From NCBI GenBank assembly GCA_040437565.1, contig JBDOQK010000021.1, forward strand, positions 62,001 to 126,000: 64,000 nt of DNA, in the 5' to 3' direction. The stretch is from Albugo candida. Lineage: Eukaryota. The notes under the pieces are model-generated. The model was given only the letters and a program-made list of their open reading frames with translations. It was not told the DNA's origin and made no database searches. Position 1 is the first letter of the stretch. Every line of letters starts with the position of its first letter. Position numbers and translations under genes: made by a program. This document shows, in pieces, positions 5,155-50,549 of the stretch.

Positions 5155-5260
5155 AGTTTGTTGCACTGCAATACAGCCTCCCCATTAGTTGTATTATATG
5201 ATTTCTCGTAACATGCTACCAAAGCCTTTCGTTTAGATTGAATTGTCTAAAGAGAGCTCA

Positions 5261-5627
5261 GTTAAAGGTGTCTATATTACTAGAATTAGACTAACTGACT
5301 TCTCTAGTTGCCTAGGNNNNNNNNNNNNNNNNNNNNNNNNNNNNNNNNNNNNNNNNNNNNNNNNNNNNNNNNNNNNNNNNNNNNNNNNNNNNNNNNNNNN
5401 NNNNNNNNNNNNNNNNAGAAGAACTACTCCTCATGTGCTTGATCGCTTCCGCCATCTCGGTCGTACTTAAGGGAGTTGAGAGACGGTCTTGCTCTGCTGA
5501 GGCAAGGGAAACTTGAATCGAATCGAGTAACTTTTCTGCTTTCTTTCACTTGGACCATTTGAGTCGGTCTCTGAGCTATAAAGCGAGCCCATGACACCAC
5601 CTCAATGATCTCTGAATTCGTCAATAA
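5261..5627 (-). mobile_element. 5'-truncated L1/Tx1-type LINE, interior collapsed into the N gap
   Basis: Exact 15-bp TSD TCTAAAGAGAGCTCA at 5246-5260 and 5628-5642. 5261-5316 is the conserved LINE 3' tail. 5417-5627 on the minus strand encodes TTEMAEAIKHMRSSSS, resembling the pre-RT 'E...AI..M....SPG.DG' segment. Confidence 0.75.
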
Positions 5628-8120
5628 TCTAAAGAGAGCTCATAAACTAGACTGCCTGCCAAGGGAAACATACGTGCAGGATAAACTATTGTGTAAGAGT
5701 ACATTAAACTTCACGTAAAATAGTATGTTGAAGGAAACAAAATTAAAAAAAAGCCGAAATGATCAACACCAGTGGTAGGGCTCTATTCATGATTACTTGC
5801 GTGCGAAAAAAGTTTGTGCCTAGCATCTGATATGTTTTTTAATTAGCTCTGATTCTAAAAGTCAAGTAAAGGGTCGCAGGTATAGAGTTGATTTTCTTTC
5901 AACATTTCGTCATGGAATGAATGGATTTGAAAGGTTTTCAATTTGTGGAAAAATCAAATGTACCAAACTTGGTGGGTCAAAGCGCACTGCGAGCCTTTCG
6001 CTTTGAAGAAACAGACACACTTCTGGTGATTTCGTTGAACCACAATCTTGCGGCGACGTGACCTATGTTCGTACTCTTATTATGAGAAGCAAGAGCACTT
6101 CGTGATTGCTAAACATAACTGTTTCATACCGCTTTATTTTGTGCATCATTAACAAAATTCCATAGCGTTTCGATCAATACCAGCTTCTTACCGTACCGAG
6201 CCTGATTCATCCATTGCACCAATGTATCTCGAAGAGCTGATGACATTGCATTGGAGGTACTAAAATATCCTTTCCACATGCATACTGAACTTTTAACAGG
6301 GCAAAAAGATAGAGTAGCTCATAAACACCATTTTAAAATATATCTGAAAGTGTTGCCGTAATTCTTCCTACTCATGTACTTTATCCCATACCGAGACTAG
6401 AGCTGATGAAGAAAAAATATAGCTCTTTCTGTATGTTCGCATTTGGATCCTCATATCATGTAAAATATGTGTGTTGTCGCGCTCTAAATGCTTCCAACGT
6501 AAAATAACTACAAAAAGGTAACATATTGAATCTAGTTTGAAGTATTCTCGGTCTTTTCAGAGATGCACAATTCTGGCTCAACTCTACATGAAGTCAACTT
6601 TTGATGTGGCCAGACGAAATTAATTTCTATGGTCTAAGGCCACGAGTGCTAAATGGTAATCATTTACTCCATCTTTAGAAGTTGAGGAGGCAAGTTCCCT
6701 ATGGCAACCAAAATAAGGAATATGAGATTGAGGGATATAGACAAAAGGCGTTGTCGAGATTCACCCGGGATACAAATGTGAGAAATAAAAACGAACTTCT
6801 CTATGCTTATATTATCAGGACCAAGAAACTTGATTTTTGCGCTCTCTTTCCGCCGCATAACGCGACCTCTTCCAAGGCGATAATATCTACTCATTCCATC
6901 TTGTGCGCAAATGTATGCAAAATGTAAAGGTGCATATGAGGTTTTCGTGCTACAAAATTTGATATTTTCAAGTTGAAAGCCAATTTTGATAATTATAAAA
7001 GGTGACGTGACCAAAATCGGAAATCAAGACTATGGAAAGGTAGACGGTTCTCGGATTGGAGACTATTCTTACGGGAGGGAATTCTTTCTACTCTCTATTC
7101 TTCCTTATAAACTTGTCATTTCTTTAAATCTCTCTACAGAAGATGTGGTTTCCGAAGGAGCCTCTAGCAAGGCGATCAATTTCATCGCCTAAACTATCTC
7201 ACTACCATTTACAAGAAGGTGTGATTGCATATGCGCTATTTATAATTGGAGGCACTATTTCTCCAAGAACGTACGTATAAGCCACCGATGGATTGACAAC
7301 TCGTTCACTATCGTGGTTCGATACTAGATTACCACTGATACGAGGCTTTATAGAAGAGCCGAAAAATGTTGCTTTTCTATTCTGATATGTAATAACCTAC
7401 TGATAGGAATTGCAGCCCATTAGGTGACCATAGAACATGAAAGTTCATGTTTGATAACACACAATTAATCCATGTACTACTTCTATCTAGTTTCACGCAA
7501 AAAAAGGTCAATGAAAACATACCCTTTGAGTACCAGAGTCTGTAGATCGGGAACGATGCTGAATAACTGTAAAATAAAAGCTGTTTACGGATGGAGATAA
7601 CTCCCGCCCGAGAAGCGGCAATAAAGAGTGAGTTCTGCCGATGCAGAAGAAATTTTGAATGGGCCAGATGTAAAATCCATGATCAATTCTCGCTCGATTA
7701 GTAAATCTGAATTTCTACACCAGCTGGTGCATTTTCAGGTGTCTACCATAAGACATAAGAATCAAGCACGACCCCCCCCCCTTTTTGACAAGATGGAGTC
7801 TTCCAAAGGAGTCTGTTCAATATTATAAAGGAGTATTGCTAATATAAAAAATCTCATTGTCATTTTCCTCTTACATGTGTGTCCTCTGCTATCCATTGAA
7901 GGAGACCGATAGGAAGGTATATTAGGCTTTTCCCATCATCGCAAGTAAGGCTTATGCAATGCGTTCTTAGGCAATGTTGAAATATGTCAGAGGGTGCTTG
8001 GCGCATCCANNNNNNNNNNNNNNNNNNNNNNNNNNNNNNNNNNNNNNNNNNNNNNNNNNNNNNNNNNNNNNNNNNNNNNNNNNNNNNNNNNNNNNNNNNN
8101 NNNNNNNNNAAATCTCATTG

Positions 8121-9572
8121 TCATTTTCCTCTTACATGTGTGTCCTCTGCTATCCATTGAAGGAGACCGATAGGAAGGTATATTAGGCTTTTCCCATCAT
8201 CGCAAGTAAGGCTTATGCAATGCGTTCTTAGGCAATGTTGAAATATGTCAGAGGGTGCTTGGCGCATCCATAAGCAAAAAAAAACACTCGAGTGCTGTCT
8301 AGGACAGTCTACACATTCCAATTGTTCGTACGGTGCACTTGCAAATTCGACGAAAGCGATTTTACTGTAAGAAGGCCAGATGTTTGTCTCCTTATAAGCG
8401 ACAAAAGGAGCCGCATGGATGAAAGAAGAAATTCTCTTCCAATCATTTTTCTCAGTATAGTTACTGTTTGGAGGCCACACACCCTCAGCAATTTTGGCTT
8501 TCATGAGTTTTTTAATCGTAGATAGCTTATTCGTTCGATTTTTTGAGACCTTAAAGTCATACCAAGATAAGCGCGGTGATCAGAGTAAAACCTATTAGGC
8601 ACCAGCCGGATTCTGCGACATATACCTAGTGTGTGACAGGCCGTACCATATCCGAATAATTCGCATGTGATTTGGAGTTTGGGGACTGACGTGTCAAATA
8701 GCAACGAAAACGCTGTTGCTGGCTGCGTCACTTCTTTGATATTAAAATTTCTTCCATACACCAAGCACATTTGCCTTTATCAGACGAAGCGTGGTAGAAT
8801 AGCATACAAGATCCTACCAACGGATCGATGTATGGTGATTCTAGCAAGCGATGATTCGATTGTACATACATGGTATGCTCTTGAACGTATTGCAAGCACA
8901 AGTTTTCTTTAAAGAGGTATACACTTCTGCATGGTGCGCTACAATCACTATTTGGTTCTCTATCTGTGACAATTGACGCAGAAGTAAGCGAGAAATCGAT
9001 AATTACTCGACCGTCGTCTATTTTGTACCCGGTCACGCAAGAGATGCACGAACGCAATTTGCTACGATTTCTTATGACCATCAAGCAATTAGAATTTTGT
9101 TCGTCATGATTTTGAGTCCATCCATCAATTTTTGCTGCTCTGATTTCGAATTCGTAAAACCGTAATAGATTCCCGCATTCTTTTTGCAGCAACTTGGGTT
9201 AATATGTAGCTTAGCGCATCCTGTTCGAGTATTTCTTTGTATTGTGCAGAAAACGTCGACGTGACGGAAAGACAGCGTAAGTTTCTGACAATCAGCTGAA
9301 TCCAACCAATGGATAGCGGGACAAAACCTGATTTGACACTTCTCGACAATAAATTTGGATTGGCACGTGCTTAAAAGAATTCTTAGCTCGACATTAGATG
9401 TTGTTGAGCTGAAAAATGTATGAAACGTCAGAATGGCAAGCGACTTGCTGTGTAACGCCAAGCAATCACGACTTACGGCTTCTTTTCTTTGTATTGAAGA
9501 TGAAGATACATCGAATAGATAGATCACTAGGAGGTTGGGACTGTTTGCGTGAAGCTCTTCTACTGTTTCCAC
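8121..9572 (-). pseudogene. Chain of overlapping minus-strand ORFs; possible decayed or spliced gene of unknown function
   Basis: ORFs 9081-9572, 8728-9192, 8501-8770 and 8121-8504 overlap head-to-tail in different frames. No recognisable domain. Confidence 0.25.
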
Positions 9573-10252
9573 CCTTTGGCCTTAAATTGGTTCCGCCCCT
9601 ATCTCATGGAAGAACAATGCTTGTTTTATCCTTGATTGTTTTCACATAAATGCGTTATATTGTTGATGTGGTTCTTCTGGGTATATTTCACGTTCGGCTG
9701 TTTGACTTTTATCCTTCTCAGAAATCACAAGTTTTGACCGCTAAAAACACGTTCCTTTACTTGATTCTCTGTCTTTGGATGTATTTCGGCGGCACTTTCT
9801 CGACGACCGGTAACAAAAAAGTAGTCTGAAAGATATGATTCAGATGATTTAGTTGAACTTTTGCACATGTCTTGTCCATTACAACTGATGATGAACGCTC
9901 TGGCGATGGCAGTGCTCACCTCGATCCAGTATACTCTGTTTTTTTAATCAATCTTTGGTAATCGAATCTGTGTGATGCTCACTGCCCTCACGATGCATCC
10001 ATGGCACGCCGCGATATCATTCGATTTGAGAGAGGACACAAAAAAAAGTCCTGACATTTTCGATTCATGCTGACGTTGTTTAGCAATATTCCTTGACATC
10101 AAAAAATTAAGAACATTGGCGCAAATCGTGGCTTCCGTATTGTTATGTTGGAGGAAGGGATAAAGGGAGATTGATTTTGTACTGGTATTTTAATGAATGT
10201 TACGCTTGTTTGAAATTAACGCTATATAAAGCTATAACCGTGCAATTAATTT

Positions 10253-11202: not shown

Positions 11203-11227
11203 TAATTAAAAAGGGATCATAAAAAAA

Positions 11228-12329: not shown

Positions 12330-13380
12330 TCTGTGATCAGAACTCAGCCTCCATGAATTAATGGAAATCGTTATCTCTAGTTGGTTTAAATAAATATAAC
12401 AGAATAAATAAAATAAAATTACGGGAATCGCTATCCAGCTCCCACCCTCCATGAATTATTGATCATCGTGGCCTCTGATTAGTCGGTAAAAGTGCAACGG
12501 AATAGATAAAAAATATATAATTCACACTGTTATCTCCTGCAACTTCAATTGACTTGTAGGCTTGTTGACATCTAGAATGGGCTATCTTTGCGCCCATGCT
12601 TTTCTCACCAAGTAATGTCGCTGTCTGTTGATGATATTGATCAGCATTGGTGACTGGTACAGCCAAAGCCAATTCATATTGAGGCTGAAACCATGCCAAT
12701 CAAATTTGAGAAAGCATCAAAAATGATTACTGATGAATAAGACGACGCTTCCAATCATCGTAAGCGTATGCTGCTTGACTATGTCTTGGCAGTATTAGAG
12801 AGAGAAAGTCGCTATCCTGTGCAAGTGCGCACGCGTGGCAGGCCATCGTCTCAACGCAGCGACTTCCATCGAAGTTTCAGCATATTAGCGCTGCTTTGGA
12901 TGCTCCTGTGCATCGCTGAAGATGTCGAAACGCAAAAAAACAGGCCACACTGCCAGAACCTGCCGTCAAGAAGCAACAGCACACCAACAGCACCAGCAAC
13001 ACTCGCAGCAGCAGATTTAGATATAGACTTAGATTAAGTAGTACAAAATGCAGAAACCGAGGTTTTTTTTGATTTTATTGTTTTTCATTTCGTTGCAATT
13101 ATTCATTTACGATTCCCGTAATTTTGATTTTTTTTTCCTGTGATACGTGTTTTAACCAATCCGAGGCCACTGACCTATTAATTTATGGATGCCGAGTGCT
13201 AATTACAAAATAGGGGAGTGCTGAATACCGATTACTTAAAAAAAGGAACCCGGTATAGCCACAGACTCTTTTTGGTATAGCCGAATCCCCTAACTTGATT
13301 GAGAACACCGGTATCGTTACACCCTCTAAATATGCTTGATAAATGAGAACCGGTATCGGCACACTCGCTAATTTCAAATT
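12330..13380. mobile_element. MULE-derived non-autonomous element with internally repetitive ends
   Basis: Shares GGCCTCTGATTGGT-like motifs, the 'CACCAACAGCACC...GATTTAGATATAGAC' segment and ~43-bp GAACCGGTATCG repeats with 51600-53751 and 58499-58810. Confidence 0.55.
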
Positions 13381-15122
13381 CGCAACAATTTGCGCATCAT
13401 TCAAGTACACCTGTTCCAAGCAACTGGACACTGACTGGTATGGAAATTGTGAAGAACATCTTACCCACGTTTGGACCATTCAAGCGGCTTGATGTTTTAA
13501 CGATATGACCTCGCCGGCATGCTACCATGGTTCGTTGGAAAGTAACGTCATCGTAGTGGAAGCAGACGTGCGTCTGGTGGAGTCAGAGTACGTGGGAGCT
13601 CACACCCCAGACCTTGCCTTCGTAGGGCAATACATCGATCTGTTGAAGGCTCCTGTCTGGCTGCAGGTGGATTCTCATCTTCACGGAAACGTTCTACTAG
13701 TGCTGTTGCTCATCGTCAATGTATGGGAATGGTCCCGGAACCTGCCCGTACTTTTAGGATGCAGTTCGCTCAAGCGTTCCGTATCCGTTCTCTACGTGAT
13801 TTGGTCGGTGGAAGATCAACTTGGTTCGTTTCGTCTTCCGAGTTTGTCTTGCGTTTCAGTACGCATACAATTAAAAACTCAGCGGAAGTTGCCGAGACAA
13901 AGCTTTTACGGCGTTTGTACGTCGAAGCTAGTCAAATTCTTCGTCGAATTCAACCGTAGGGGAGGGAGCTTTGTTGTGTTCAAAGCGTACCATTTCCATG
14001 GATTACCCGGCTCAGTTTGGCATTCTAGTTTCAGATAAGTAGATGTTCTTTACAAATATTCCTCGTAATCAACACTTTCGAGTTGTTGGTAAAGCTGAAC
14101 CACCGGATATGCCTGACCCACTGCTGCTGCACATACCAGAGAGAGACCGGCCAAGTGCTTCGACTTGGGTGAAGGATTTCTCAACGGGTTTTAAACGTCT
14201 TCGCGGACGTTTATTACCAATATACTCGGACATTCAGCTCCGACTTACATANNNNNNNNNNNNNNNNNNNNNNNNNNNNNNNNNNNNNNNNNNNNNNNNN
14301 NNNNNNNNNNNNNNNNNNNNNNNNNNNNNNNNNNNNNNNNNNNNNNNNNNNCCCACTGCTGCTGCACATACCAGAGAGAGACCGGCCAAGTGCTTCGACT
14401 TGGGTGAAGGATTTCTCAACGGGTTTTAAACGTCTTCGCGGACGTTTATTATTAATATACTCGGACATTCAGCTCCGACTTACATACTTAATTTTACCAG
14501 TGCGATACCGGTTCTGGTTTCTGAAGCAAGCTCATCCGGAAATCATCCTGTGCACACAGTAGCATTGTGGTGACGTGGAAAGCTTTCAGCATCTGTGTTT
14601 CGACTGTGGTAGGGCATACCCGATTTTGGAGGAGCTATTTCCTTCGTGGACAGCATTCTTTTCAGGTCGACCTTAGTGGACTCACACTGCGTGTCTACGA
14701 CTTCCTCTCCTCCGGGACAGATGGAAGTCATTCAGGATGGTGTTGGAAGATCTTTGGTTTGCATCGAATGCCATTGCGACTTCATCTGGACGGATCGGAA
14801 TAGAAGCTTTTTTGACCAAGCATCTTCAACACCAACATGACCATCTATTTTGGTGATCTTTCGGTGATCTACAGCACATTCAGCGCCCATAATCAGTTTT
14901 GTGAATATTTTTTCGGGAGATCAGATCATCTCAAGATACGATGACGTCAGCGCTCATAATTCTGAGTTGAGTAATTAATCTACTCAACCGTCTTCAACCG
15001 CGCCAAGTCCACTTTTTGTGACTTTTCAAGCCACATCTGCATGTATTACATGTTATTTAGTGTAGTCTAGGCATTTAGAGAATTCATTTACGTCTAATTC
15101 TAGTAATATAGACAACTTCAAC
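13381..15122 (+). mobile_element. L1/Tx1-type LINE, 3' part (ORF2 C-terminus plus 3' tail), decayed
   Basis: GMVPEPARTFRMQFAQAFRIRSLRDL and RLLPIYSDIQLRLT..ILPVRYRFWFLK align with GMVDEPHRTFRKSFSTVFEIRSLQDF and RVLPTFGDLKFRLACRLLPVRSRFLFLK at 17.4-18.1 kb. It ends in the conserved tail GTCTAATTCTAGTAATATAGACAACTTCAAC. Confidence 0.8.
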
Positions 15123-15136
15123 TGAGCTACCGAGGC

Positions 15137-15456
15137 GGACCCCGTCGGGGGGCTTAGCGGATAGTACACATGTGTTCCGACCGTGTGTACCCCGGTTTGA
15201 ATCCCGGCGGTGGCAAAAGGGCTGCGTTGGGGCCCCTCGGCGGAGGCAAGGATTCCTCCACGTAAATATCAACCTACTCAATGAAGATGTGGACGTGTCA
15301 AGACCGCTGGCAACTACACCAAATAATAACTGTACAGGAGTTGGACCGGGCTCTTTAAAGCCTTACATGCTAGTGATTAGAATAGAGTAGATAACCACCA
15401 AACAGTAGTAACAGAATGGTGTCTAAATAAAAGTACTACGGGCGAACACCCTTAAC
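15137..15456 (+). mobile_element. tRNA-derived SINE family B, full length (320 bp)
   Basis: A-box-like GGCTTAGCGG and B-box GGTTTGAATCC (15194-15204) in a tRNA-like head ending CGGTGGCA. Second copy at 50036-50206. 14-bp TSD TGAGCTACCGAGGC at 15123-15136 and 15457-15470. LINE-like 3' end. Confidence 0.85.
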
Positions 15457-15470
15457 TGAGCTACCGAGGC

Positions 15471-18400
15471 ACTTCTAAATTATCCGGCTACTACGTAACC
15501 GGCCAATTTGATACAAAACACCTCGAAAACTACCTTTTTCAACTCGAAAACAGGTCGACATATCGACACAGCCCAGGGTGCTAACGTCGACTTGTAGTGA
15601 CGTGGCAGCCCTCATGAGTCACCCAGCTTTTGGTGGTTGCATGATTGTTGGGGAGTCATCACCCCTGTGTGACGGCGTGAAAAGTACCCCCACCGCCAGT
15701 GTAACGAGTACAGGGAAATACCGGTAGTACCAGTGTCGGATGTAGTACCGACGGTACGTGCGGTACTGTCATTTTCTTGTCACAGGGTCACCAAAAGGCA
15801 ACTGCAAGTGTGACGACACTAAAAGTCCCACTTTGGCAGACATTATCAAGTTACAGGAGTCCTTGCGTAAGGACCAGGCTCGAGCTCGGGCGAAATTTCG
15901 CGTGGAGCTCCCTAAGCCGAAAGCCTCGGATATCGAGGCTACAATGCAGCTATGTGCTGATGGTGAGCACCCGGATTGGTCTGTTTTGTCTGCGAAATTG
16001 GAAGCAGAAAGACCTTTCCAAATCCGGAACGCAACCTTTTCAATAGTCTTGGAGACGGGCCAGTCCTTGACACGTACTCCAAATGGGAAACTTCTTACAT
16101 CCCTGATGCGAGACCACGGCAACAAGGACTTTGAAAGCCTACTGAAGAGCCGGCCAATCGGTCAGGGATCCAAAATGCGTGGGGGCAACATCAGGGTGAT
16201 GGTCACTACGGCGGATGCCTGCCAACAATTGGAGTGCCAGCCAGCGACTATCCTGGGGAACAATTTTTTTTCGGGAGTTTGATACTCTTGTCACAAAATA
16301 CTACCTCCATGTTTTCGGCGTAGACGTGGAGGAGGAGCGGAAAATCATTTTTTGCGCTCTTCACCATCTCCGATGTCAAGTGCTGTATGAACCTTTCGCG
16401 AGACGGTTCCCACTAAAGAATTGGTGATGTCGACATGGAGAGTTTACTTTGGCTGTTCGACGTGTCCCCAACAAATGGATAGAGTTGAATAAATCACTTG
16501 CGACAAACAACTTTACCCAGTAAGGTGAAAACAGGCTCCCCATTTCATCGGAACGACCACGTTTCAGTCAACGTGGTCCTTATTGCTTGGAATTGGGTGC
16601 TGCACCAGCCACAGGAGCACGGCAAAAAAACCAAAACAAACAATATCAAACACCAAAGAAAAACGCAGCCTCCAACTCAGCACCAAAACCAGCAAAAACA
16701 TGAACATCAACAAAACAAACCACCGAGTAAAATGCACTCGTGATGTACCACAAGCGGTAGTGAAGCCAATTCCAACTCAAGAATTGAAGAAGAGGAAACC
16801 TGAACTGAAGCTCTCTAATCAAATTTCGTTGGAGCTCAATACTCCCCAACTATCACACCACCAGGGGCACCAGATTTATTACAGCCCTCTTCTCCCATCC
16901 TCCAACTGGCAACTCAATCGTACTCCCAACCACGGGTGTAGCGGGATGGGGATGNNNNNNNNNNNNNNNNNNNNNNNNNNNNNNNNNNNNNNNNNNNNNN
17001 NNNNNNNNNNNNNNNNNNNNNNNNNNNNNNNNNNNNNNNNNNNNNNNNNNNNNNCCTTCGGCGACAAGATGGTGGACTACAAGTTCCTTTTTTGGTGGGA
17101 CGACTAAAGCTACAACGTATCCAATTCCTTCAGCAGTTTGCAAACGATGCGTCAACAATTATTCCTGCGAATTGGACAGCTGCCTCGACGGAAGTATTAC
17201 AACTTATCCAACCTTCCTTTGGACGACACAAGCCGATAAAAATATTTACTATCGCACCAAATCGACATGGAAAAATGGTTCAATGGGAGAGTATATCGTC
17301 ATGGTGGACACACGCATTCAAAATGTGGCATCAGATGGATTGAAGTATTACAAGTTCAGATTTGCATGTTTCACAGCGCCGTCAGTACTACATGGAACAA
17401 CCGATGTGGTTTCACTGCGACCAAAAGTTACATTTCAAAGCTGTTACTCGTAATCCGAGTACGCAAAACGTTTGGTACACTCTTGGTATGGTGGACGAAC
17501 CACATCGAACATTCCGGAAATCATTCTCTACGGTTTTCGAGATTCGCAGTCTACAAGACTTTTTTCGAGAAAGTGAAACATGGCCAACGAAGATGGATTT
17601 GGTCGCCAATAATTAGAACGACGAAGAGATGAACTAAGCGGATATGACTGAAGAAAATTTATTGAGTCGACTGTACAGTGAAGTCACTCAGGTACTTCAG
17701 CGTATCCACTCGACGATGGATCTCATCAGTTGGATCCAACGAGACACAAGTGGCAGATCCTAATATGTGGGAGTACAAATCAAGGAGAGGAAACATCATT
17801 TTTCATCTATGCCTCGCTCGAAACTCTCACAAATCGTCTGGAAACCTCCCGAACCAACCAAGAGTTATTCGATGTTGACATATTGGTCATCAAGGTAGAG
17901 ATCGGACGCACTGGATTCGGAACGAGTTGGAACTTTTATGCAACATCACGACATCGTCGGAAACGAGTATTACCCACTTTTGGAGATTTAAAGTTTCGTC
18001 TGGCCTGTCGGTTGTTGCCAGTTCGATCTCGTTTCTTGTTTTTGAAGAATATGCAGCCCGACATCATATTGTGCACGCAGCCTTCGTGTGGGGCAGTGCA
18101 GTACGATCAACCTCTCTTTTTAAAGAGCCATCACATGGCACAATTATGGAGGGATTTACTACCTAATTGGGCTCATTTTATATCCTCTTTAACAAGTTGG
18201 CCACGTATTGCATTTGCAATTGTTCCATATACGGCCGATATGGAAGGACTATCAGCAAATCATATCAGATTCATGGCTTGCATTGAAAGCGGTGACGCTG
18301 CACTTCGTCTGTACCGATAGCAATCGTCGTATGTTCGATCAGCGATCGGGAACTTCAACCATTCCAGCACTTTCCGTTATCTATCCCACATTTAGTGCGC

Positions 18401-18500
18401 GCATTCGGTAGTATCGAAGACAGTGTTACGACCAAGATGACTGCATTTGTCTTGTTTAAGTGTTAGATCAGCTCGCAACTCAAGGATCATTCGTAGACGC
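15471..18500 (+). mobile_element. L1/Tx1-type LINE: 5' UTR, frameshifted ORF1 (~15758-16950), gap, ORF2 C-terminus (17055-~18480)
   Basis: Starts immediately after the TSD. ORF1-like frames 15758-16282 and 16215-16427. The post-RT region has WWTHAFKMW, RLACRLLPVRSR and a Cys motif (LCTQPSCG). Multiple stops and frameshifts; EN/RT presumably lies in the gap. Confidence 0.75.
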
Positions 18501-19160
18501 TAATATATTTTTCCTTCTAACGTCGTGGCTAGCAAACATGTTGCTAGAGCCAAAAAAGCAGCCCATTTATTTCGAGAAAAAACACACGCGCATCGAGGAA
18601 GGTGATTGTTCAGCGCGTGTCGATGAAGCAGTGTATACTCTTATTGACGATTTTAGAACGGCAATAGACCTAATCAAAGTCAACAAAGTCGTACAAGAAG
18701 AACGTTCACGTACCGAAGGCTGAAAAGCATGTTAGCTTCCGCTATCATGACAATGGCTTAGTTCAATGCACCTTGTACCATGCGATAGCACTTCAAGGAG
18801 TGCTCAAACGATAAATGCGGTACAGTAGTTATAAGATTGGTGGTCTTTCACACTATCAATCGTGTTCTTTAGGCCTTAGACACGCTTCGGACACCACATT
18901 CGTCTAGATGTGGTATAAAATAATCGTTGAAAAGAATTCAGTAAAGCGACAGGACTAAATTTAGTCGGCGGTACACTGATAGAAAGTTTCACCACCACCT
19001 GAGTTATGCAGTCGAGCGACACAATCACTCGCATTTTTCGAGCTGATGTTAATTTGACAANNNNNNNNNNNNNNNNNNNNNNNNNNNNNNNNNNNNNNNN
19101 NNNNNNNNNNNNNNNNNNNNNNNNNNNNNNNNNNNNNNNNNNNNNNNNNNNNNNNNNNNN

Positions 19161-19602
19161 TGATGTTTGGAAACCCTTTACACTGGTAATTGAGGATATT
19201 CGGTTAACGTTAGTCGCGGTTGCGATCCATATTGTTTGGACGGTTCGAAAACGAAGACTTTTCGATCAAGGCGTTTCGGTGCCTACTACCCTTGCTGTTT
19301 TGGTGTCTTGTAGCACACTGAATGCCCATATCCGATACTTTACTGTCATATTAAGAACAAATACTAGTTGAATGTGAAGCTATCTCTTTGCTACGCCCAA
19401 TCTATTTCAGCTTCGACGACGTTTAAGATTCTTAATCGGTGCTGAGTAACATGTCCACTCAGTACTACTTATTTCCTGTTCGCTGAACTTCGGTATGGAT
19501 TTTTCTACATCAACCTTGCATGAATGCGTTGTTTATTTTATCTTAGCTTAGTCATTTGGGAAAGAGGTGGCGTCTAATTTTAGTAATATGATCAACTTCA
19601 AC
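19161..19602 (+). mobile_element. LINE 3' end fragment (same group)
   Basis: AVAIHIVWTVRKRRLFDQ...STLNAHIR aligns with TLHFVCTDSNRRMFDQ...TFSARIR. The tail CGTCTAATTTTAGTAATATGATCAACTTCAAC is followed by TGGGCC. Confidence 0.75.
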
Positions 19603-19745
19603 TGGGCCTTGCGAGTACTTCTCAATTGACGAGCTATTATAAATTTGAAAAGATGGCATAGCTTAGAAGTATTATGCAAACCCAAGCAACTGTTTACTCT
19701 TCCTGTCGAAAAAAATGGTTCCAACCTGCATATCAAGCCTACATA

Positions 19746-22154: not shown

Positions 22155-22986
22155 TTGAACATTGACATCTTTTTTTCACGTCCAGGACTCAGTCAACTTT
22201 ACATTGTGAGACATTTTTCTACAATGAGTATTTTATCTTTCTTGGTATGAAAGTGCAAAAGACATTAACAAATTTAGTCTTCTTGGATCAGCCGATCGCA
22301 AAACCACGGTCAGGCTGACCTCGAGGTCGATACGATAGCAGAGATCGCATGGCGACTGATTTGATACTGAAAAGAAACGTCCTACCATTCTTGTCGAAAA
22401 AGTAGTAAGCATTCTCTTTGTCTTACGCAGGCTCTAATAATTGCCTCAACCTTTGTTACTTCGAGAGAATTAGGTGAAAACTGAAATGAAATCGAAGCTG
22501 ATGGTCATTGAAGAAACGTCNNNNNNNNNNNNNNNNNNNNNNNNNNNNNNNNNNNNNNNNNNNNNNNNNNNNNNNNNNNNNNNNNNNNNNNNNNNNNNNN
22601 NNNNNNNNNNNNNNNNNNNNTTGAACATTGACATCTTTTTTTCACGTCCAGGACTCAGTCAACTTTACATTGTGAGACATTTTTCTACAATGAGTATTTT
22701 ATCTTTCTTGGTATGAAAGTGCAAAAGACATTAACAAATTTAGTCTTCTTGGATCAGCCGATCGCAAAACCACGGTCAGGCTGACCTCGAGGTCGATACG
22801 ATAGCAGAGATCGCATGGCGACTGATTTGATACTGAAAAGAAACGTCCTACCATTCTTGTCGAAAAAGTAGTAAGCATTCTCTTTGTCTTACGCAGGCTC
22901 TAATAATTGCCTCAACCTTTGTTACTTCGAGAGAATTAGGTGAAAACTGAAATGAAATCGAAGCTGATGGTCATTGAAGAAACGTC
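22155..22986. repeat. Gap-flanking duplication (22155-22520 vs 22621-22986)
   Basis: Apparently identical sequence on both sides of the N gap. Confidence 0.85.
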
Positions 22987-28133: not shown

Positions 28134-28571
28134 CAGCTGAAATGCGAATTTTGATGCTGACATTCATTCACTCATCTGACAGCTATTCCAAATATTTCAA
28201 CGACGTCTTTCCCGCCGGAAAGAGTGAATGTCAGCGTTGGGATACTGAAATCAGAATCAGATTCACCTTTATTCATACAGTAATACCGGTACGTTTTCCG
28301 ATTTTGTGGCTCTAGTATCGCGCATCAAACTGTATCCACTCGCTCCAAAGAATATTGTATCAAGTACGTATGCAACAATGCGTTTTTCTCACAATAAGTA
28401 AAGCTAACGCATACGATCACTGTGTCTAGTTCACGCGCGCAACCATAAAGTAGTGGACATCTCTTTGAGGATTCATTTTTCTCTTCTCTACCGGGTATAC
28501 GGTACGTCCACGCCGTCATGAGGTATCACATGTATACTTATACCTCATGTATGTATAGTCGTCATACAAAA

Positions 28572-41009: not shown

Positions 41010-42924
41010 TACTATTAGTACTATACCGGTTTCTTATACTTTGTACGTACGCAAGCAGGGAACAGCATGATCAAATCCCTTAAATGCTCGATTTCATCCN
41101 NNNNNNNNNNNNNNNNNNNNNNNNNNNNNNNNNNNNNNNNNNNNNNNNNNNNNNNNNNNNNNNNNNNNNNNNNNNNNNNNNNNNNNNNNNNNNNNNNNNG
41201 TGGCGGTATCAAGTCCGTATTAGCAAACTCTAGCTTTTTCGCGTACGCCCTGACTGTTTCTCGATGATACTAGACCCTTTTATCTGGCTCGAGAAAACGC
41301 TTTTGTAAGGGCTCATTTATCCAATGTCCGTTCAAGCCTGATGATGAAACCAGCTGCTAGAAGAATGCATCAGATTTTTTAACAAATCTTACAGTCTTAG
41401 TGGCGATCTGGCAAAAAGTAGCGCCAACTTCTTATACTTAGCAGCACATAATGGTTGACTGGTGCTCTGGAAGCTGAGTTGCTACACAACGGATTACTTT
41501 TGAGTACCCGACTCCGGAAAGAACGCCTGACGTAATCTCAGAATTTTTCGTCAGGAGCTCTTTATCTCGCGTGTTATTGACGAATACTATTTTTTCATTG
41601 GCAGAAGAAAATATTGGTCGCTTCCAGCATCCTCAATACGTCATAACATAAAATAGAATCAAAGTCATGCAAGATTTTATGGCTGTCTCTTATTGTATTG
41701 GATTGATGTTGTTAAAATCCGATCCAGAGACTTCTGCTGATGAGACATGAGACGACGAATCAGACGTTCCTATATCAACTCGGTAGATACTGTAAAAGAG
41801 AAGAATAGAGCTAAATGTCCTCCCCGATAATGATACACATGTTATTCCATGTATCTCCCTGATGTTATAAAATTTTGAGAATTGCGCCGAATAACAACCA
41901 GCTCAAGCCATCTACTGCTAAGTTACATTAGAAAACGTTTCGCGGGTGTGCTCTCGTGGCAATTTTTTGTCAAACACACGTGACTATACGATTTACAGGA
42001 TCATTAATCTTGTGTTTTCTTTGGTGTTANNNNNNNNNNNNNNNNNNNNNNNNNNNNNNNNNNNNNNNNNNNNNNNNNNNNNNNNNNNNNNNNNNNNNNN
42101 NNNNNNNNNNNNNNNNNNNNNNNNNNNNNCCTGATGTTATAAAATTTTGAGAATTGCGCCGAATAACAACCAGCTCAAGCCATCTACTGCTAAGTTACAT
42201 TAGAAAACGTTTCGCGGGTGTGCTCTCGTGGCAATTTTTTGTCAAACACACGTGACTATACGATTTACAGGATCATTAATCTTGTGTTTTCTTTGGTGTT
42301 ATTGAGCTGCATCTCGATAGTAGATATTGACAATGCCTAGACGGAAGATTGTTCGCAGTTCTATCACCTAGCAGTTTGTATTTTATGCCTTGGTAACGAT
42401 TGTCGTCCATGCAAGTTCTTGTGACAACTATTGCTTACTTTTTTTATGGTGTGGCACCATTGTTCTTCAAGATCCAATACACACTTCCCATAATTGCGTT
42501 ACAGAGCTCTCTATGTGTGACTTCTTGAGTACTGTATGCTTGACATCATTCCAGGTACTTTCTGNNNNNNNNNNNNNNNNNNNNNNNNNNNNNNNNNNNN
42601 NNNNNNNNNNNNNNNNNNNNNNNNNNNNNNNNNNNNNNNNNNNNNNNNNNNNNNNNNNNNNNNNATCTCGATAGTAGATATTGACAATGCCTAGACGGAA
42701 GATTGTTCGCAGTTCTATCACCTAGCAGTTTGTATTTTATGCCTTGGTAACGATTGTCGTCCATGCAAGTTCTTGTGACAACTATTGCTTACTTTTTTTA
42801 TGGTGTGGCACCATTGTTCTTCAAGATCCAATACACACTTCCCATAATTGCGTTACAGAGCTCTCTATGTGTGACTTCTTGAGTACTGTATGCTTGACAT
42901 CATTCCAGGTACTTTCTGAGCTCA

Positions 42925-43010
42925 GCTGGAGGTGTCTGTATTACTAGAAATAGACTAGCTGATTTCTCTAGATGCCTAGGCTATCTTGAATAAAAAACAA
43001 TGCATATAAA
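42925..43010 (-). mobile_element. Isolated LINE 3' tail
   Basis: The reverse complement reads ...CCTAGGCATCTAGAGAAATCAGCTAGTCTATTTCTAGTAATACAGACACCTCCAGC and is followed by TGAGCT (42919-42924). Confidence 0.7.
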
Positions 43011-43094: not shown

Positions 43095-46000
43095 CAAGGA
43101 TGTGCACTATGCGTAAGGGTGTGCACATACCTAGAGTCATAGCGAAGAAAACCATTTTTGGACGAAGATAACGAAGCATCACAATCATTCGTTCTTTAGC
43201 GGACAGATCTTGCGACTGTGAGCCGAACGAGCGTACTTCACATCTTCTCGTTTGGCGCTTTTTAAGATTCTCATTAGCTTGTTGAAATGGAATCTGCTAC
43301 TTCTTTTTCTGGAGTCTTGGACACATTTTTTGCAAGTACATCTTCCAGCACTAGTGACATTATGTCATCTACGGATCTCTTGAAAGGCTGCAAACGTCGA
43401 TAATCGACAGTAGTCGTGCAAATACGTTCCCATGTTGGGCAGTTTACCGGACTGCTCCAGTGCCAGTAGTGCATGAANNNNNNNNNNNNNNNNNNNNNNN
43501 NNNNNNNNNNNNNNNNNNNNNNNNNNNNNNNNNNNNNNNNNNNNNNNNNNNNNNNNNNNNNNNNNNNNNNNNNNNNNAATCTGCTACTTCTTTTTCTGGA
43601 GTCTTGGACACATTTTTTGCAAGTACATCTTCCAGCACTAGTGGCATTATGTCATCTACGGATCTCTTGAAAGGCTGCAAACGTCGATAATCGACAGTAG
43701 TCGTGCAAATACGTTCCCATGTTGGGCAGTTTACCGGACTGCTCCAGTGCCAGTAGTGCATGAATACAAGACGAGTCAACATCTTCGCGTAAACCACACG
43801 AGCATCGTATAACTTCATCACGAAATTAAATTGCAAACTTTCCCGGAAAACCTCCGCCTCTGGGTGGATTGCAACGATGTATCTGCAGGTCGAGCAGTTA
43901 TCAATTTCACCCCTCTTCGTAGCTAACATTGTTTTAACCACCTTGCGCGATCCATATGGAGCTAGTTATTCCAGTCCGTTCATTTTCACGCCAGGTAACA
44001 CTCGATCCCCTTCAAGCAGTCCATAATAAAAGACTGTGCATTTCCTTCATCACGCTATTTGCCGCTTCCCATTTTATTGAACGTTAAAGTGCTGGATTCT
44101 GGACATGGTGAGTAAGCTGTTAACCATCACGACGGCCAGTCTCTAGAAGTCACTCCGACACACTGCTGTCAAAGTTGACGACAGTCGCTACCGCATTCTC
44201 ATACTCCACCGCTGTCCATGAGTACGCAAATATCCAATGCCAAATCTTTCACATGTATCTCCTATTGAAATCTTATTTCAAATGCCTAAGGCAAATAACG
44301 TGTTACACGTCTGGTACCGTTGTCTGCGTACATTTCGTAAGTATCTTCGATATCTCCTATATCACCAATGCTGGAGTTGGCTGGAGGTGGGAGAGTAGCA
44401 AAATCCGATAACCAGCTCCATTTTATTTCATTCTCCGCCGATACCAGCTGCAATATTATAATTTGGATCTCGTAAATTATCATACATATAGCCTGGTTCA
44501 AGGAGAATCCTACAACAGAAGTAGGAGAATATTTTTGTCATACCGACAAAGCATATGGAGGAAAGAGCTGGGTCGATCGATCACTCTCTGGATGCATTAG
44601 GTAATAATTGGAGGGCTATTTTTTGGTTTCAATGAATAAGCTAACGTAATACAAACTTCTTTTTTTTACCTTTTATTCAACTCGCAGTACGCTCCCAAAT
44701 AACAGGTCATGAGCCCAATCGGAGATACTGTTGCCGCGGACGAGGGTAGCCACCGGTCGCGAAAGGGCTAGTGAACTACTGGAAGAGAAACGAGCAGTAA
44801 AGAATGATGAGAAGACGAAAGGGACTCAGGAGAAGATTCTTGGTCTACTGACGGTTCCAGGATAGCGCATGGAGCGCTTAAGGAGTCGCAGAAGCGACGG
44901 AATAAGGACGAGAAGATTAAGGGACGCCAGGAAAGCGTATTTGGATCATCATTGGGACAAGAAAGGGCCATGCATCGCAAGAAGCTCTGAACATGACGCC
45001 ATCTCGAGCCGTCACACCTGCGTTATAGCCGGCTACATACTTCGGCACGAGGCAACCGGGACACGTGGAAGCGGAAGAGAATGTTGAGATGGCGCAGGCG
45101 CCGCAAGTGAGGCTACCGCAACACTTTGTGCCGCCGTAAGCGTACCGCATGCCGCGTATGCAGCATCAGGTACATTCGCCAGTTGCTCAAATTGGTCATG
45201 TGCCTGACACGAGGCAGATAAGGCTTTGATTACACCCATTAGATGGTAAGGAAACTATACCTAGTATTGTAAAGGTTAGTGGTTTCCAGTCATTGGGCAA
45301 AACGTTCGTGAGATAAGTGCAGTTTGCGGACCGTGCGTGTGGGTTCTGTGGTCAGAGAATGTGAAGGTCGATGTACTCGGGGCATAATTTGAAAGGAATG
45401 GCCCGAGAGGTACTACAACCAACAAGTGGAAGTCTGGTGGGAGGAGGAGCAGGCGCTCAAGTATGCGGTGCAGCGGCTGCTCCACACGTTTAACATCAAT
45501 ATTACCCATGCCCAGAGTTTGAAAATGTTCACTGCAGCGAAGAGCGCCAAGAAAAGCTGGACAGCACTACCTATATCTGGAAGCGGTCAGCGGGGCGTGT
45601 GGAGGTGCCGATAGTCTCGTTCTGGACAATACTGTGCACTACGCAGGCCTGGCAATGCGAGTGACGATGCTTTCAAGGCTAAATTTAGCTCGTAATGACT
45701 ACTTGTGGCACGCTGAACAGTTGGCGCACTTTGCCCAGTCAACCTAGATTGACCTATAAGGAAGCAATTCGGGAAGGACTAGGTCAACGTGGTACATTCG
45801 AAAGGAAAGATCCAAGAAAGTGTTTTAAGTGCGGAAGAATGGGCATGTGGAAGACAGATGCCTGAGGAGATTGATCAAAACGATCAGAAGATGACTTTGC
45901 TAGCAGTGAAGGACAAGAATTTCGGCCTAGGATACGGGATACTAGACAGTGGATCAAGTCGTCACTTGGTGAATGATTTAAGACTTTTGGATAATGTCGA

Positions 46001-49000
46001 GGACTACACTAGCGAGTGTTTGGCCGCAGACGGAGGAACTCTACATATCACGAAGCGTTGAACGGCTATCAAAACAACATCAGAGATAGGCAAAGCCACA
46101 AGGGTTCAACTTCCAAACGCACAGTATGCTGCGCATCTTGAGAGAAGGATCGTTTCGTACGGTTTGTTGGACGCAAAAGGATACGCCATTTCGTATCGCT
46201 AAAACCAACTCGGAATAAATGGTTGGTGTAGCAATATTCTGATTGTTCGTGTACAAGATTACTTTGCGTGCAGGTGATGTACTGTATTGATGTCGGTGCT
46301 GACCCAAAACGAGTTTCAAGTTGACCAGGATGTACAAAAAGGATCCCTCACGCATTTACATCGGCGTTTGGAACACCTCCACTATGACATGATTATCAGT
46401 ATGGCGAAGGACCCAGCGTCAGATGTTCTGCTAGCAGACGAGGTGCGTTCGAACTGTTTCACCTTAGCGCAAGGAAAACAGACGAAGAACAACCAATCAA
46501 GGGATACGGAAGAAATTCACCGATAGACTTGATTGGAGGAGTAATATGCTAGGATTTGAAATGACCCATGACTCCACGAGATGTACTGGGAAATCACTAT
46601 ATGGTAAACTTTATCGACCTTCGCACAAAGCATTGCAGGGTATTCATAGCCAAGACTAACGACATCGCGGCCCATAACTTTAAGCATTTATATGGCCTTT
46701 TTAGCGTCAGTTTAACTGTCGGGTTCATGTGCTGAAGACCGATGGAGGATGCTAATACCGGACGCTGGACCTATTTTGCAAGGAAAAAGGAATCGCGCGA
46801 CAAGTTCGTGAGCCACGAAATCAGGAAAGCAATGGTAAAGCAGAAAGGAAACACCGCACCATTATAAATATGGTGCGTAGCATGGTGCATGCCTGTGCAC
46901 TTCCATTAAGCTTCTGGAGAGATGCCGCGGAATACGCGGCTTACACTCTAATCAGGAGCACAAGCAAGGAGAATGAAGGAAGGCGATCTCCATTAGGACT
47001 TGACAATATTTGAGTGATATTGTTGTGTTTTGATCAGCATGCACGGTGCATTGTGACGCAAGAACCAAATTTGTAGGAGAGCGAGGAATGGCTGGTGTGA
47101 TTATTGGAAAAAGTGATGAATTCAAGGGATACGGTTTTTTTTCTCGGGACAAAACTATCGTTATGACGCAGCACGTCAGAAATGTAGAGACACTAAAAAG
47201 GAACAGAACGCTCAGCTAATGGAGAAGAAGATGAATGGTCGCGGAAATAAGAAGGTGTGGAGGCGTGAATGACATCGAACAAGGTCAATGGGACGCAAAG
47301 ACTCTGTAGCCACTGTGGCAAAGATCAGTGCCAGGTTCGAGGAGACAGAGGTCGTGGTTAATAGTGTGCGAGAGCCAGACCCTCGGAACTATGGCGAATC
47401 CATCCGATGTGAGCTCAAGGATGAATAGGTGATCGCGATGACGAATGAGCTCGATGCACTGCAGGATAATGGAGTCTGGGTGGTGAAAGTACCACCATAT
47501 AAGAGTCACGTGTTGCACACCAAGTGGGTCTACAAGACGGATGCCAATGGGACCATCGAACGTTTATAGGCACGTTTGGTTTCTGGGGCAATGAACAAGT
47601 TAATGGAGTTGATTACGGCCTTACATTTTCCCCAGTGATGGAACTAAGTACGGTGAAGGTGATTCTGGTGCATGCATTGCGTTGCGGTGTGGCCTCTAGG
47701 CATGGAGACATTCTCAACGCATACTTAAACGCGGATAAGGAGAAGCACCTAGAGATATTCCTGGCGATCTCGCAAGGCATAAAAATAAAAAAAAACGTGC
47801 TCAAGCAACATGGTGTGGATACAAAGGACAAGCTGGTATTGAAGCTCAAGAAGTCACTGTACGGGTTGAAGCAAGCCGGTCGTTTGTGGAGCGAGCTGCT
47901 GCATGCAAAGCTAGTGGCTGTTGGTTTTATTCGCTGCCTTACCGATATACGTTTAAAAACAACAATCATCGGCGTCTATGTTGACGACTTGCTGGTGACG
48001 GCGTCTAAGGCGATACTGGTAAGCGATTTTTTGGATAAATGGGAACATCTATTAAAGTGATTTTGAACGAAGACATATATTTACTAGATCAAGAATCGGC
48101 GATAATGGAGTTCCTTGAACACGGGCTGACGAACGCGAATAGAGCACGCTTGCGATTGGAGACGAGAACAACGACACAGAGGATAATCCGGTCTTCTCAT
48201 CTGCTCAAGCGATCACAAAAAATGAGCCAACATTACACGATTTCCAGAAGCTTGTGAAAAGTTTCGTATGGCTTGCGCTCTGAACGAGGCTTGATTTCAC
48301 CTTTGCAGTGCACAAGGCAACGCGACGTACTTATAGATCCACGGTTAATGACTGGACAGTGTCTAAAAGGGATGCACGATACCTGAATAAGAACACAGAA
48401 AGTGTTTCAATTGCAAGTTGGAGCGACTCCGATTTTGCTGCCGATAAGACGGAATGGAAGTCCGGTATTGGAGGAGAAGTTACCTTGGATGGAGCATCCG
48501 TGCTGTGGGTTTGTAAGAAGCAAACTGGAGTGTCTCTCTCTACCACGGATGCCGAGTTCACGTCAGCCTCTCGCATGGGATGCGAAACTACTGGAAATGA
48601 GGGAGCTACTCCGAGAGGTTGCAATTAAGGTGGTGGAGCCAATGTCTATGTTTATGGAAAACCGGGCAGCTATCCGGCCAAATTGAGATGGAAGACAGCA
48701 TGTCTAGCGCGAAGAAAGTCGATTTGCGTCTGAATTTCATCTGCGACATATTAAAAAGAGACATTATGAGATCAGAGTATGTCGAGTCACGGTTGATGAT
48801 AGCCGAAATTTTGACAAAGTCGTTACCGGCGCCAAGATTGGCGGAGCTGAGGGAGAGCTTCAACTTGAGTTAAAATAAAGAGTCGGCGACAGTGAGAGCA
48901 GATAGAGCGTGAGACGACCAAGGAGGAGTATGACAATATATTTCTCATACCGACGATGCATATGGAGGAAGAGACGGTCGATCGACCACTCTCTGGGTGT

Positions 49001-49764
49001 ATTAGGTAATCAATGGATTGCTATTTTAGGGATCAAGGATAAGCTAGCGCAATACAAACTTCCTTTTTTATATTCAACTCGCAGTACGCTACTAAAATAA
49101 GAAGAAGTCCTCAAATATGAGCGATCTAAAAATACATTCTAAAACACATGCTCGATGTATGGCGTATATGCCTGTAGCCTTTCTCGGAGAATGATACTCG
49201 ACCGAATAAAATCTTTATTTACGATATCAAGCTTGTCTTCAAGCCTCGAATATTAGCTAAGAAATGCATTATTGATATCAGTTCCAAAAAACTCGAGCCT
49301 AAACATATTGAGAGCGTGAGAATAGTTCATACAGACAGCGGAAATCCCTTCGTTCTTCATCCTCATTTACATCATCACTGGAGTCATTATTCCTGCCGAC
49401 ATCATGGCCATTTCTCTGGCGTAGGATTTACAGCCATTTGTTTCGCTGTTGCATAAATGCGAGGCGCCTTTGACGTTTTGGTACATGAAAGGATTGCAAA
49501 GCAACCTTGGTGGAGGAATCAATCTCTGTGAATAAGCAAACTGCATCAGGAAGTTGCAGACGTACAGTATGCATACTGCTTCATACCACACGAAACGGAT
49601 GGTTCTAGTTTTGGTTAAAACCGATCACTGCTTGAATGATATCGCTTTTATTACCGTAACACCTCGTTGAAGAAGCTTCGAGCTGGCGTTGCTCGTGTTC
49701 GCTTCATGTCGCAGGGGCTGAAATTATGCAATGTGTACACTCATACGTATAGTACACATCCCTG
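43095..49764 (-). mobile_element. Decayed hAT-like DNA transposon interrupted by a Copia element
   Basis: Imperfect ~34-bp TIRs CAAGGATGTGCACTATGCGTAAGGGTGTGCACAT / ATGTGTACACTCATACGTATAGTACACATCCCTG with a CAGGG-type end. Broken minus-strand frames at 49367-49591 (Cys/His, BED-like) and 43274-43941. TSD not verifiable. Confidence 0.45.
44522..49102 (+). mobile_element. Ty1/Copia LTR retrotransposon, full length, decayed
   Basis: LTRs at 44522-44704 and 48929-49102, 5-bp TSD AGAAG, PBS GGTCATGAGCCCA, PPT AAGGAGGAG. Protease ILDSGSSRHL, integrase remnants, RT KSLYGLKQAGRLW and YVDDLL, RNase H WSDSDFAAD. Confidence 0.92.
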
Positions 49765-50035
49765 TTTTTTTTTATTGTGCAAGTCTTTACTCTTGTGGTT
49801 GTCAAGGATTTTATTACACTGTTTATCTGGTTTTTAACTACCTACCTTATCCTATGATGAGCCCCTGACCGTGTGAATATCACTTCAGTCTGACTTCAAA
49901 CCTAGGGAGGCAGATATTTTCCAGACTTATTGCTTGGGTGGACTCAAACCACTGCCCACACTGCGGGGATCGAACTCACGACCTCCAGCAACAGGTCCGT
50001 GCGCTCAAGTGCTTAACCGACTGAGCTGGGTGCGG
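49765..50035 (-). mobile_element. tRNA-derived SINE family A (tRNA-Lys-like head, A-rich tail)
   Basis: On the minus strand: A-box AGCTCAGTCGG, B-box GAGTTCGATCC, a ~190-bp body and tail AATAAAAAAAAA. Second copy at 50307-50545. Confidence 0.8.
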
Positions 50036-50206
50036 TCACCCCGTCAGGGGGCCTAGCGGATAGTACACATGTGTTCCGACCGTGTGTACCCCGGTTCGAA
50101 TCCCGGCGGTGGCAAAAGGGCTGCGATGGGGCCCTTCGGTGGAGGCAAAGATTCCTCCACGTAAATATCAACCTACCCAATGAAGATATGGACGTGTCAA
50201 GACCGC
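50036..50206 (+). mobile_element. SINE family B copy 2 (runs into the gap)
   Basis: Closely similar to 15137-15307, with a perfect B-box GGTTCGAATCC at 50093. Confidence 0.85.
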
Positions 50207-50545: not shown

Positions 50546-50549
50546 ATGG

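Follow-up and report, generated by a model that had tools for sequence, protein, structure and literature searches.

The 64-kb stretch of Albugo candida contig JBDOQK010000021.1 analyzed here (64,000 nucleotides, positions 62,001 to 126,000; hereafter the window, with coordinates counted from its first letter) carries decayed copies of an oomycete long interspersed element (LINE) and of a short interspersed element, SINE-B, with 3' tails that end directly against the hexamer TGAGCT. This hexamer is the complement of AGCTCA, which we take to be nucleotides (nt) 9–14 of a tRNA, lying inside the A box of the RNA polymerase III (Pol III) promoter. We consider it likely, at a probability of roughly 0.7, that the elements form a tRNA A-box-targeting LINE/SINE system in which tRNA nt 1–14 are duplicated and an intact tRNA gene is regenerated. 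New copies lie antisense to tRNA-type sequence with their 3' end abutting the complement of AGCTCA, flanking duplications of 13–15 bp correspond to tRNA nt 1–14, and an intact tRNA gene can persist head-to-head with the LINE 5' end. One and the same site is used repeatedly, as seen in arrays of tail, spacer and 5' end, in tandem SINE-B copies and in a SINE-B copy inserted exactly at 15122/15123.

A preliminary description of the window had listed five related tails followed by TGAGCT, or by TGGGCC at 19603, and this is borne out. A 23-mer tail is found at 5269–5291 (−), 15092–15114 (+) and 42933–42955 (−) with at most three mismatches, where shuffled sequences lead one to expect none, and the tail ending at 19602 (+) and the SINE-B tail ending at 15456 (+) are more diverged and still align with these three copies. 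TGAGCT stands directly after four of the five tails and TGGGCC, at 19603, after the fifth; with just 45 occurrences of TGAGCT in the window, both strands counted (128 kb), the pairing of tail and hexamer is not due to chance. The same description held that the hexamer belongs to the target, pointing to a 15-bp target-site duplication (TSD) that contains it and to its position 14 nt 5' of the SINE-B copies. The 15-bp TSD proved exact, with TCTAAAGAGAGCTCA identical at 5246–5260 (the 3' copy, reading TGAGCTCTCTTTAGA in element orientation) and 5628–5642 (the 5' copy), both belonging to an insertion on the minus strand. A further exact TSD flanks SINE-B on the plus strand: TGAGCTACCGAGG is found at 15123–15135 and 15457–15469, with no other match in the window when up to two mismatches are allowed, and constitutes a 13-mer, or a 14-mer (15123–15136 and 15457–15470) if the next shared base, C, is counted. 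Its reverse complement, GCCTCGGTAGCTCA, resembles tRNA nt 1–14. The hexamer starts 13–14 nt ahead of the SINE-B copy at 15136/7 and 14 nt ahead of that at 50036. Its location inside both exact TSD pairs, and 34 reads of a site lacking SINE-B in which one copy is kept (see below), confirm that it derives from the target. The tail itself is conserved at the sequence level; a functional 3' hairpin is unsupported, the 5-bp stem having a predicted energy of −1.3 kcal/mol with none of its five pairs covarying among six sequences.

Judged by domain content, the window holds decayed copies of a LINE assignable to the L1 group, with a single predicted open reading frame (ORF) for an apurinic/apyrimidinic endonuclease (APE), a reverse transcriptase (RT) and a C-terminal CCHC knuckle. 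Full-length proteins of this kind measure 1360–1400 amino acids (aa), and relatives P0003, P0006, P0009 and P0010 combine Exo_endo_phos (PF03372) with RVT_1, in keeping with the APE type proposed at the outset. The relatives include a source-named Albugo laibachii 'Pol-like protein' (72–82% identity) and more distant proteins (37–57% identity) with the source names Globisporangium, Plasmopara, Peronospora and Aphanomyces; the residues C1239, C1244, H1252 and C1257 of the C-terminal C..C..H..C motif are invariant in 11 aligned proteins. LINE-type RT, N-terminal APE endonuclease, 5' truncation (copies starting at aa 926 and at about aa 450) and TSDs of 15 and 13–14 bp are all present. The element between the 15-bp TSD copies (5261–5627, −), whose tail ends at 5261 and whose interior lies in an N gap (5317–5416), is a 5'-truncated LINE, since 5533–5417 encodes LINE protein (aa 96–134 of P0008 at 82% identity, approximately aa 451–510 of P0003); position 5627 falls within LINE coding sequence and was rejected as a full-length 5' end. 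Copy 1 (13383–15122, +) is likewise 5'-truncated and comprises a remnant of P0003 aa 926–1397 (13383–14953, about 80% aa identity by tblastn) that runs, through a 3' untranslated region (UTR) of about 170 nt, into the tail ending ...CTTCAAC at 15122. Copy 2 (15470–19060, +) is a degenerate long form that begins with CACTTCTAAATTATCCGGCTAC, a terminus hereafter called R, followed by coding sequence for the N-terminal domain (15779–16594, aa 124–402 of long-form LINE proteins) and for the C-terminal part (17056–18489), with a gap at 16955–17054 covering the endonuclease (EN)/RT region. Downstream, a 3' fragment (19161–19602, +) encodes P0003 aa 1294–1353 (19162–19341, tblastn) and runs through its 3' UTR into the tail ending at 19602, which aligns with the other tails. 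A 14-nt spacer, TGGGCCTTGCGAGT (19603–19616), separates this tail from the next R-like 5' end, which starts at 19617 with ACTTCTCAATTGACG. Fragments of copy 3 (50621–51390, +) cover the start of the EN (aa 19–61, 50672–50799, all that survives of the endonuclease in the window) and RT aa 569–731, both mapped on P0003 within 50672–51390. They contain the only Pfam RVT_1 match of the window (50935–51228, E 7.8e-8, against 1e-32 to 4e-37 in the relatives). The remaining tail copy (42925–42990, −; two mismatches in the 23-mer) is followed in element orientation by the 14 nt TGAGCTCAGAAAGT (42911–42924), and the DNA upstream of this tail showed no LINE coding sequence.

Both junctions expected of an insertion into a tRNA gene were found on metagenome DNA. 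A search of JGI metagenome contigs with a 22-nt tail returned two contigs, L001 and L002, both richer in GC than the window (about 40%) and both in tRNA clusters. On L001, a contig of 1.4 kb that also carries tRNA-Thr and tRNA-Ser genes, the tail is followed by TGAGCTATTCCCCC and then by unique DNA. On L002, it is followed by TGAGCTATCGAGGC and then by unique DNA, and TGAGCTATCGAGGC is the exact complement of nt 1–14 (14/14) of a tRNA-Phe whose gene lies 676 bp away on the same contig. This intact tRNA-Phe gene is joined at its first base, head-to-head, to ACTTCTCAATTTGCCGGCTAC, which is R. An ORF that begins some 90 nt further on is 66% identical to aa 19–139 of P0024 (E 3e-33) and also matches aa 18–161 of P0041, both of which are EN–RT relatives of the LINE; in the window, the terminus at 15470 is the same as R of L002 and a homologous N-terminal domain follows. 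We thus identify R as the LINE 5' end because LINE N-terminal coding sequence follows it at 15779–16594 in the window, with the C-terminal half after the gap, and conclude that R came with the insertion because the flank upstream of the L002 stub is not R-like. R (ACTTCT.AATT...) was rejected as a conserved flank that tRNA genes would naturally carry upstream, since it is absent from the second tRNA-Phe copy on L002 and from the tRNA-Thr and tRNA-Ser genes on L001. Since it has the nt 1–14 stub behind the tail and a whole tRNA gene at a full-length LINE 5' end, L002 alone displays the two junctions predicted in the preliminary description, namely duplication of nt 1–14 only and an intact tRNA head-to-head with the element. 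The termini of the LINE are conserved at both ends and lack poly(A). About 20 nt at the 5' end (15470–15491 versus 469–449, −, on L002) and the tail core (22/22 nt) are near-identical where the proteins are only about 55% identical; the termini appear to be strongly constrained. Tail scans of genome-contig and viral-contig collections gave no match, and a protein-profile scan of genome contigs yielded eight loci with LINEs of 23–27% identity in contaminated contigs of metagenome-assembled genomes, which were not used.

As a genome-wide proxy we aligned raw reads of a run of the same species (X21) and three Logan contig sets (33–38 Mb) to 14900–15620 at a likeness of at least 80%; the counts that follow are those of the classes listed, so that shares are approximate and joints are minimum numbers. 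Read depth reaches about 6360 in the terminal 25 nt of the tail versus about 440–540 at the lowest flanks, which at a coverage of about 45×, estimated from letters read over assembly size, would correspond to the order of 100 or more tail copies. Read ends pile up at 15125, 15127, 15128 and 15129, and the following 30 nt agree only at 0.35–0.53. The largest listed classes leave the tail after TGA (998 reads), TGAGC (635), TGAGCT (666) and TGAGCTA (1053), so that 3352 reads share at least TGA and 1719 of these at least TGAGCT; on the opposite side of the tail 3613 reads have loose ends. The same classes recur in the contig sets. The 3' flanks are thus non-random genome-wide, as had been anticipated. 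Six different inserts of 6–8 nt link TGAGC, TGAGCTA or TGAGCTAC to 15469–15471, and therefore at least six further loci consist of a tail, 13–15 nt starting with TGAGC(T), and then R (CACTTCTAAATT...). On the opposite strand all six inserts read N7-U8-R9-G10-C11-U12-C13-A14, which we take to be the 5'-end pattern of a tRNA. Read copy number is high from 15554 onward, within LINE copy 2. A non-canonical 14-mer also recurs behind tails, as TGGGCCTTGCGAGT in the window and as TGAACTTGCGAGTA in the contig consensus of the class leaving after 15125, and points to a further family of repeated tRNA-like targets, one that has A at position 8.

The head of SINE-B (15137–15456, +) contains a motif resembling the Pol III B box, and the 3' end of the element (...CCCTTAAC) is akin to the LINE tail. 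A second copy (50036–50206, +), preceded by TGAGCTGGGTGCGG and ending at a gap, is 94.7% identical to 15139–15307. An 11-mer resembling what we presume to be the B box is found exactly at 50093 and with one mismatch at 15194. Given the 3' end in common with the LINE, established by alignment, and the TSD at 15123/15457, SINE-B is a non-autonomous partner of the LINE. The second copy interrupts another element, SINE-A (49796–50035, −), after the AGCTCA of its tRNA-like head (...CCGCACCCAGCTCAGTCGGTTAAG...; site 50022), and in one frequent read class TGAGCT leads into GGGTACGGACCCC; this is the SINE-A head in reverse, the site that SINE-B occupies at 50022. Neither ARAGORN nor Rfam calls a tRNA in the SINE-A and SINE-B heads. 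Tandem SINE-B copies in the reads and contigs share a tRNA-like spacer of the same type. At the 15123 site, 34 reads of run X21 join 15119 to 15454 over 17 shared letters, without SINE-B and with a single 13–14-mer kept, a number with which the coverage estimate of about 45× is consistent. In another isolate, then, this site or a close paralogue of it seems to lack SINE-B, which hints at recent activity of SINE-B. SINE-A itself ends in ...CCTTGACAAYCCA with no TGAGCT behind it. Its copies at 49796–50035 (−) and 50307–50546 (+) are 90% identical and inverted, on either side of SINE-B and a gap; the inverted pair could be real, or the small contig 50307–50800 could be misoriented.

The mechanism that we propose would start with a nick made by the APE endonuclease in the sense strand of the tRNA, somewhere from nt 14 to about nt 18; its precise place is ambiguous, since the terminal (C)AAC of the element is the complement of GTT(G) in the D-loop. 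The nicked end would then prime reverse transcription, possibly aided by 3–4 nt of pairing, and cleavage of the other strand would fall at the 5' end of the tRNA, at a distance of about 14 nt. As insertion would regenerate the full target, the same gene could be struck again, and repeated insertion would build head-to-tail arrays with a 14-nt spacer, consisting of tail, TGAGCT plus N8, and the next 5' end. tRNA-derived SINE heads with AGCTCA would also serve as targets, as would occasional unrelated AGCTCA sites. Such behavior may amount to a 'safe harbour' strategy.

Several findings weigh against this explanation. The nick position, the order of strand cleavage and the functionality of the tRNA after insertion are features that we infer. 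The tRNA junctions come from two short metagenome contigs of other organisms, the window's own genome sequence shows no head-to-head tRNA, and ARAGORN and Rfam find no tRNA gene anywhere in the window; position 13383, where the local array starts on the left, shows no tRNA either. Within the window, one insertion alone is both solitary and clean, that at 5246/5628, and it occupies an AGCTCA site in non-tRNA DNA (the DNA adjoining 5628–5642 gives no tRNA in ARAGORN). U8, which a tRNA should have, is missing from the 14-mers at 42911 and 19603, the local array carries unlike spacers at 15123 and 19603, and 9 of the 53 listed contigs of set X19 part from the tail after a single T, the others diverging after TGA (16), TGAGCT (11) or TGAGCTA (17). 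The association with tRNA genes put forward in the preliminary description therefore holds in part: both metagenome tail contigs lie in tRNA clusters and the L002 junctions match a real tRNA-Phe, as against a window without tRNA genes and with one insertion in non-tRNA DNA. In view of the non-tRNA site at 5246/5628, the missing U8 at 42911 and 19603, the differing array spacers and the lack of a tRNA gene in the window, site specificity is strong and not absolute.

In a simpler account, the endonuclease has a plain preference for TGAGCT, much as human L1 prefers TTTT/A, and tRNA genes and SINE heads are struck merely as carriers of AGCTCA. The solo insertion at 5246/5628, the spacer at 42911, which is not tRNA-like, the use of the SINE-A head as a target and the diversity of many flanks past the hexamer would all follow from such a preference. 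It does not predict that both tails found in metagenomes lie in tRNA arrays, one with a 14/14 match to tRNA-Phe, nor that TGAGCT is followed by A, corresponding to tRNA U8, in the largest read class, in five of the six joint inserts and behind both metagenome tails; the sixth insert has C for the T of the hexamer, and U8 is read there one base earlier. The variants TGAACT-like, TGAGCC and TGGGCC all retain G10 and A14, as we take tRNA D-stems to do, and repeated use of one site is improbable for a 6-bp motif present 45 times in 128 kb. We therefore regard a plain motif preference as unlikely, if still the most serious competitor to A-box targeting.

Recruitment through the Pol III machinery instead of DNA sequence, by a TFIIIC or TFIIIB tether as for Dictyostelium TRE5-A and yeast Ty3, would explain why the elements are associated with tRNA genes and with SINE heads of Pol III type, and APE-type L1-group elements that use TFIIIB are known (PMC5911963, in excerpt). 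The insertions studied here are nucleotide-precise and lie inside the gene, not in an upstream or downstream zone; a non-tRNA AGCTCA site (5246/5628) is also used, as are 14-nt tRNA remnants devoid of a B box, such as that hit by SINE-B at 15122/15123, and this route is thus very improbable. Least credible of all is that TGAGCT forms the 3' end of the element itself, or that the tails are tRNA-like SINE 5' heads on the other strand: tail plus hexamer, when reversed, does resemble a tRNA D-arm (AGCTCAGTTRAAGG), but two elements have the hexamer again at their far (5') end, LINE ORFs enter the tails on the tail strand, copies differ in sequence past AGCTCA and the empty site retains one hexamer. 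The TSDs and the direction of the ORFs led us to reject the tails as tRNA-headed SINEs of the opposite strand, and the resemblance of the reversed tail to tRNA nt 15–28 past the first four bases (about 9/17 by eye) is too weak to claim.

The assembly and the other residents of the window were surveyed as well. The window contains 21 gaps of 100 N (for example 2058–2157, 4694–4793, 22521–22620, 26699–26798 and 42565–42664), and the 5261–5627 element and the second SINE-B copy are each broken by one of them. Most gaps are bordered by identical or near-identical copies of the same 130–910 bp; local repeats such as 25712–26623 and 26799–27710 are artefacts, since the scaffolder left overlapping contig ends unmerged, and Rfam 'miRNA' matches at 26555–26698 correspond to an inverted copy adjoining such a gap. 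Of the 119 ORFs that are 90 aa or longer, 111 were scanned against Pfam (those excluded were five from the duplicated block 27051–27646 and three in or over an importin-like gene, 28449–31376), and the result was a single RVT_1 ORF, two ORFs with copia RVT_2 and one MULE transposase. A regular-expression search of the window for the RT motif YxDD found the copia element only. This copia-type long terminal repeat (LTR) retrotransposon spans 44517–49100, with LTR-like repeats at 44517–44702 and 48924–49100 and RVT_2 at 47503–48057; a second RVT_2 fragment lies at 54902–55369 (−). A remnant of a MULE/Mutator-type transposase with FAR1, MULE and ZSWIM RNaseH-like domains is found at 59184–60089, and a host gene at 28449–31379 (+) consists of an intron-free ORF of 976 aa with importin-beta/HEAT repeats. 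This gene and the source names of the homologues agree with an Albugo-like oomycete. An unclassified dispersed repeat (12375–13371 and 52172–53748, in pieces of 78–88% identity, one of them inverted) adjoins two different LINE fragments.

Target-specific LINEs are already known, and what would be new here is the tRNA-intragenic target class for APE-type elements and the host group. The comparisons that follow draw on excerpts of the papers cited. Target specificity has been assigned to LINEs where one kind of sequence occurs in more than 20% of flanks (PMC4494074), and our reads show such shared 3' junctions, with approximate shares among the classes listed. R1/TRAS/SART (R1 clade) and Tx1/Keno/Mutsu/Dewa (Tx1 clade) resemble the Albugo LINE in combining APE and RT with precise insertion into a multicopy target, in their specific, non-poly(A) 3' ends and in forming tandem or nested arrays at the target; SINEU and Tx1-Mar share a target as SINE-B and the LINE do here (PMC4494074). 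The targets reported in these excerpts for APE LINEs are rDNA, telomeres, small nuclear RNA genes, 5S, microsatellites and transposons, whereas here it is the A box of several tRNA species. Dewa sits in the spacer of a tRNA-Leu array (PMC3706591) and not, as here, inside the gene, and the Tx1 clade is described as one of animals (PMC4494074), whereas the present host is an oomycete. Fixed intragenic tRNA sites are used also by the LINEs NeSL-1_TV (tRNA-Pro), LIN15_SM (tRNA-Arg) and LIN25_SM (tRNA-Glu); by their description, these are NeSL-related elements with a restriction-like endonuclease and one tRNA per family, in contrast to the APE and multi-tRNA motif found here (PMC4640811). The Dada DNA transposons (such as Dada-tI and Dada-tY, from Perkinsus marinus and fish) hit the same hotspot, with TAGCTC, nt 8–13 of the tRNA in the A box, as TSD (PMC3706591, PMC8869645); they use a DDE transposase, generate a TSD of 6–7 bp and disrupt the tRNA gene, whereas the present system has RT and APE, a TSD of 13–15 bp and a regenerated intact gene copy. 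TRE5-A and TRE3 of Dictyostelium, themselves L1-group APE LINEs, and Ty1 and Ty3 of yeast also exploit tRNA genes as safe landing sites, and land 2 to about 1000 bp upstream or downstream by way of Pol III factors, unlike the fixed base inside the gene observed here (PMC5911963). The preliminary description had supposed the system to be undescribed in oomycetes, and we found no oomycete APE-type LINE inside tRNA genes in full-text articles, Repbase Reports and supplements lying outside the scope of this search. The excerpts of two oomycete genome papers report large tRNA arrays and mention no LINE inside tRNA genes (PMC9584435, PMC11540230), and PMC5006619 makes no mention of oomycete, Phytophthora or Albugo.

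Taken further, the data allow a tentative proposal, to which we give somewhat less than even odds, of an ancient LINE lineage extending from Albugo to Pythium, Phytophthora and the downy mildews. Its termini would have remained almost unchanged and it would live essentially only in tRNA genes, cutting the A box, rebuilding the tRNA at its own 5' end, so that its 5' terminus becomes the new tRNA upstream region, and stacking into arrays. Such a lineage would also be the first of APE-type LINEs to target the interior of tRNA genes, converging with Dada on the same bases. If A-box targeting holds true, the LINE would add a new target class for APE endonucleases, in striking convergence with Dada, and would offer a simple system for the study of APE site recognition, target and enzyme both being small and conserved across genera. 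Site-specific LINEs illustrate how a selfish element can survive in a compact genome and leave its genes unbroken, and are under study as templates for inserting genes at chosen sites. Recognition of the elements would improve repeat and tRNA annotation in oomycete pathogens, where 14-nt stubs and LINE-flanked tRNAs may confuse counts, and, if the proposed lineage exists, it may have a part in the unusual dynamics seen in oomycete tRNA arrays.

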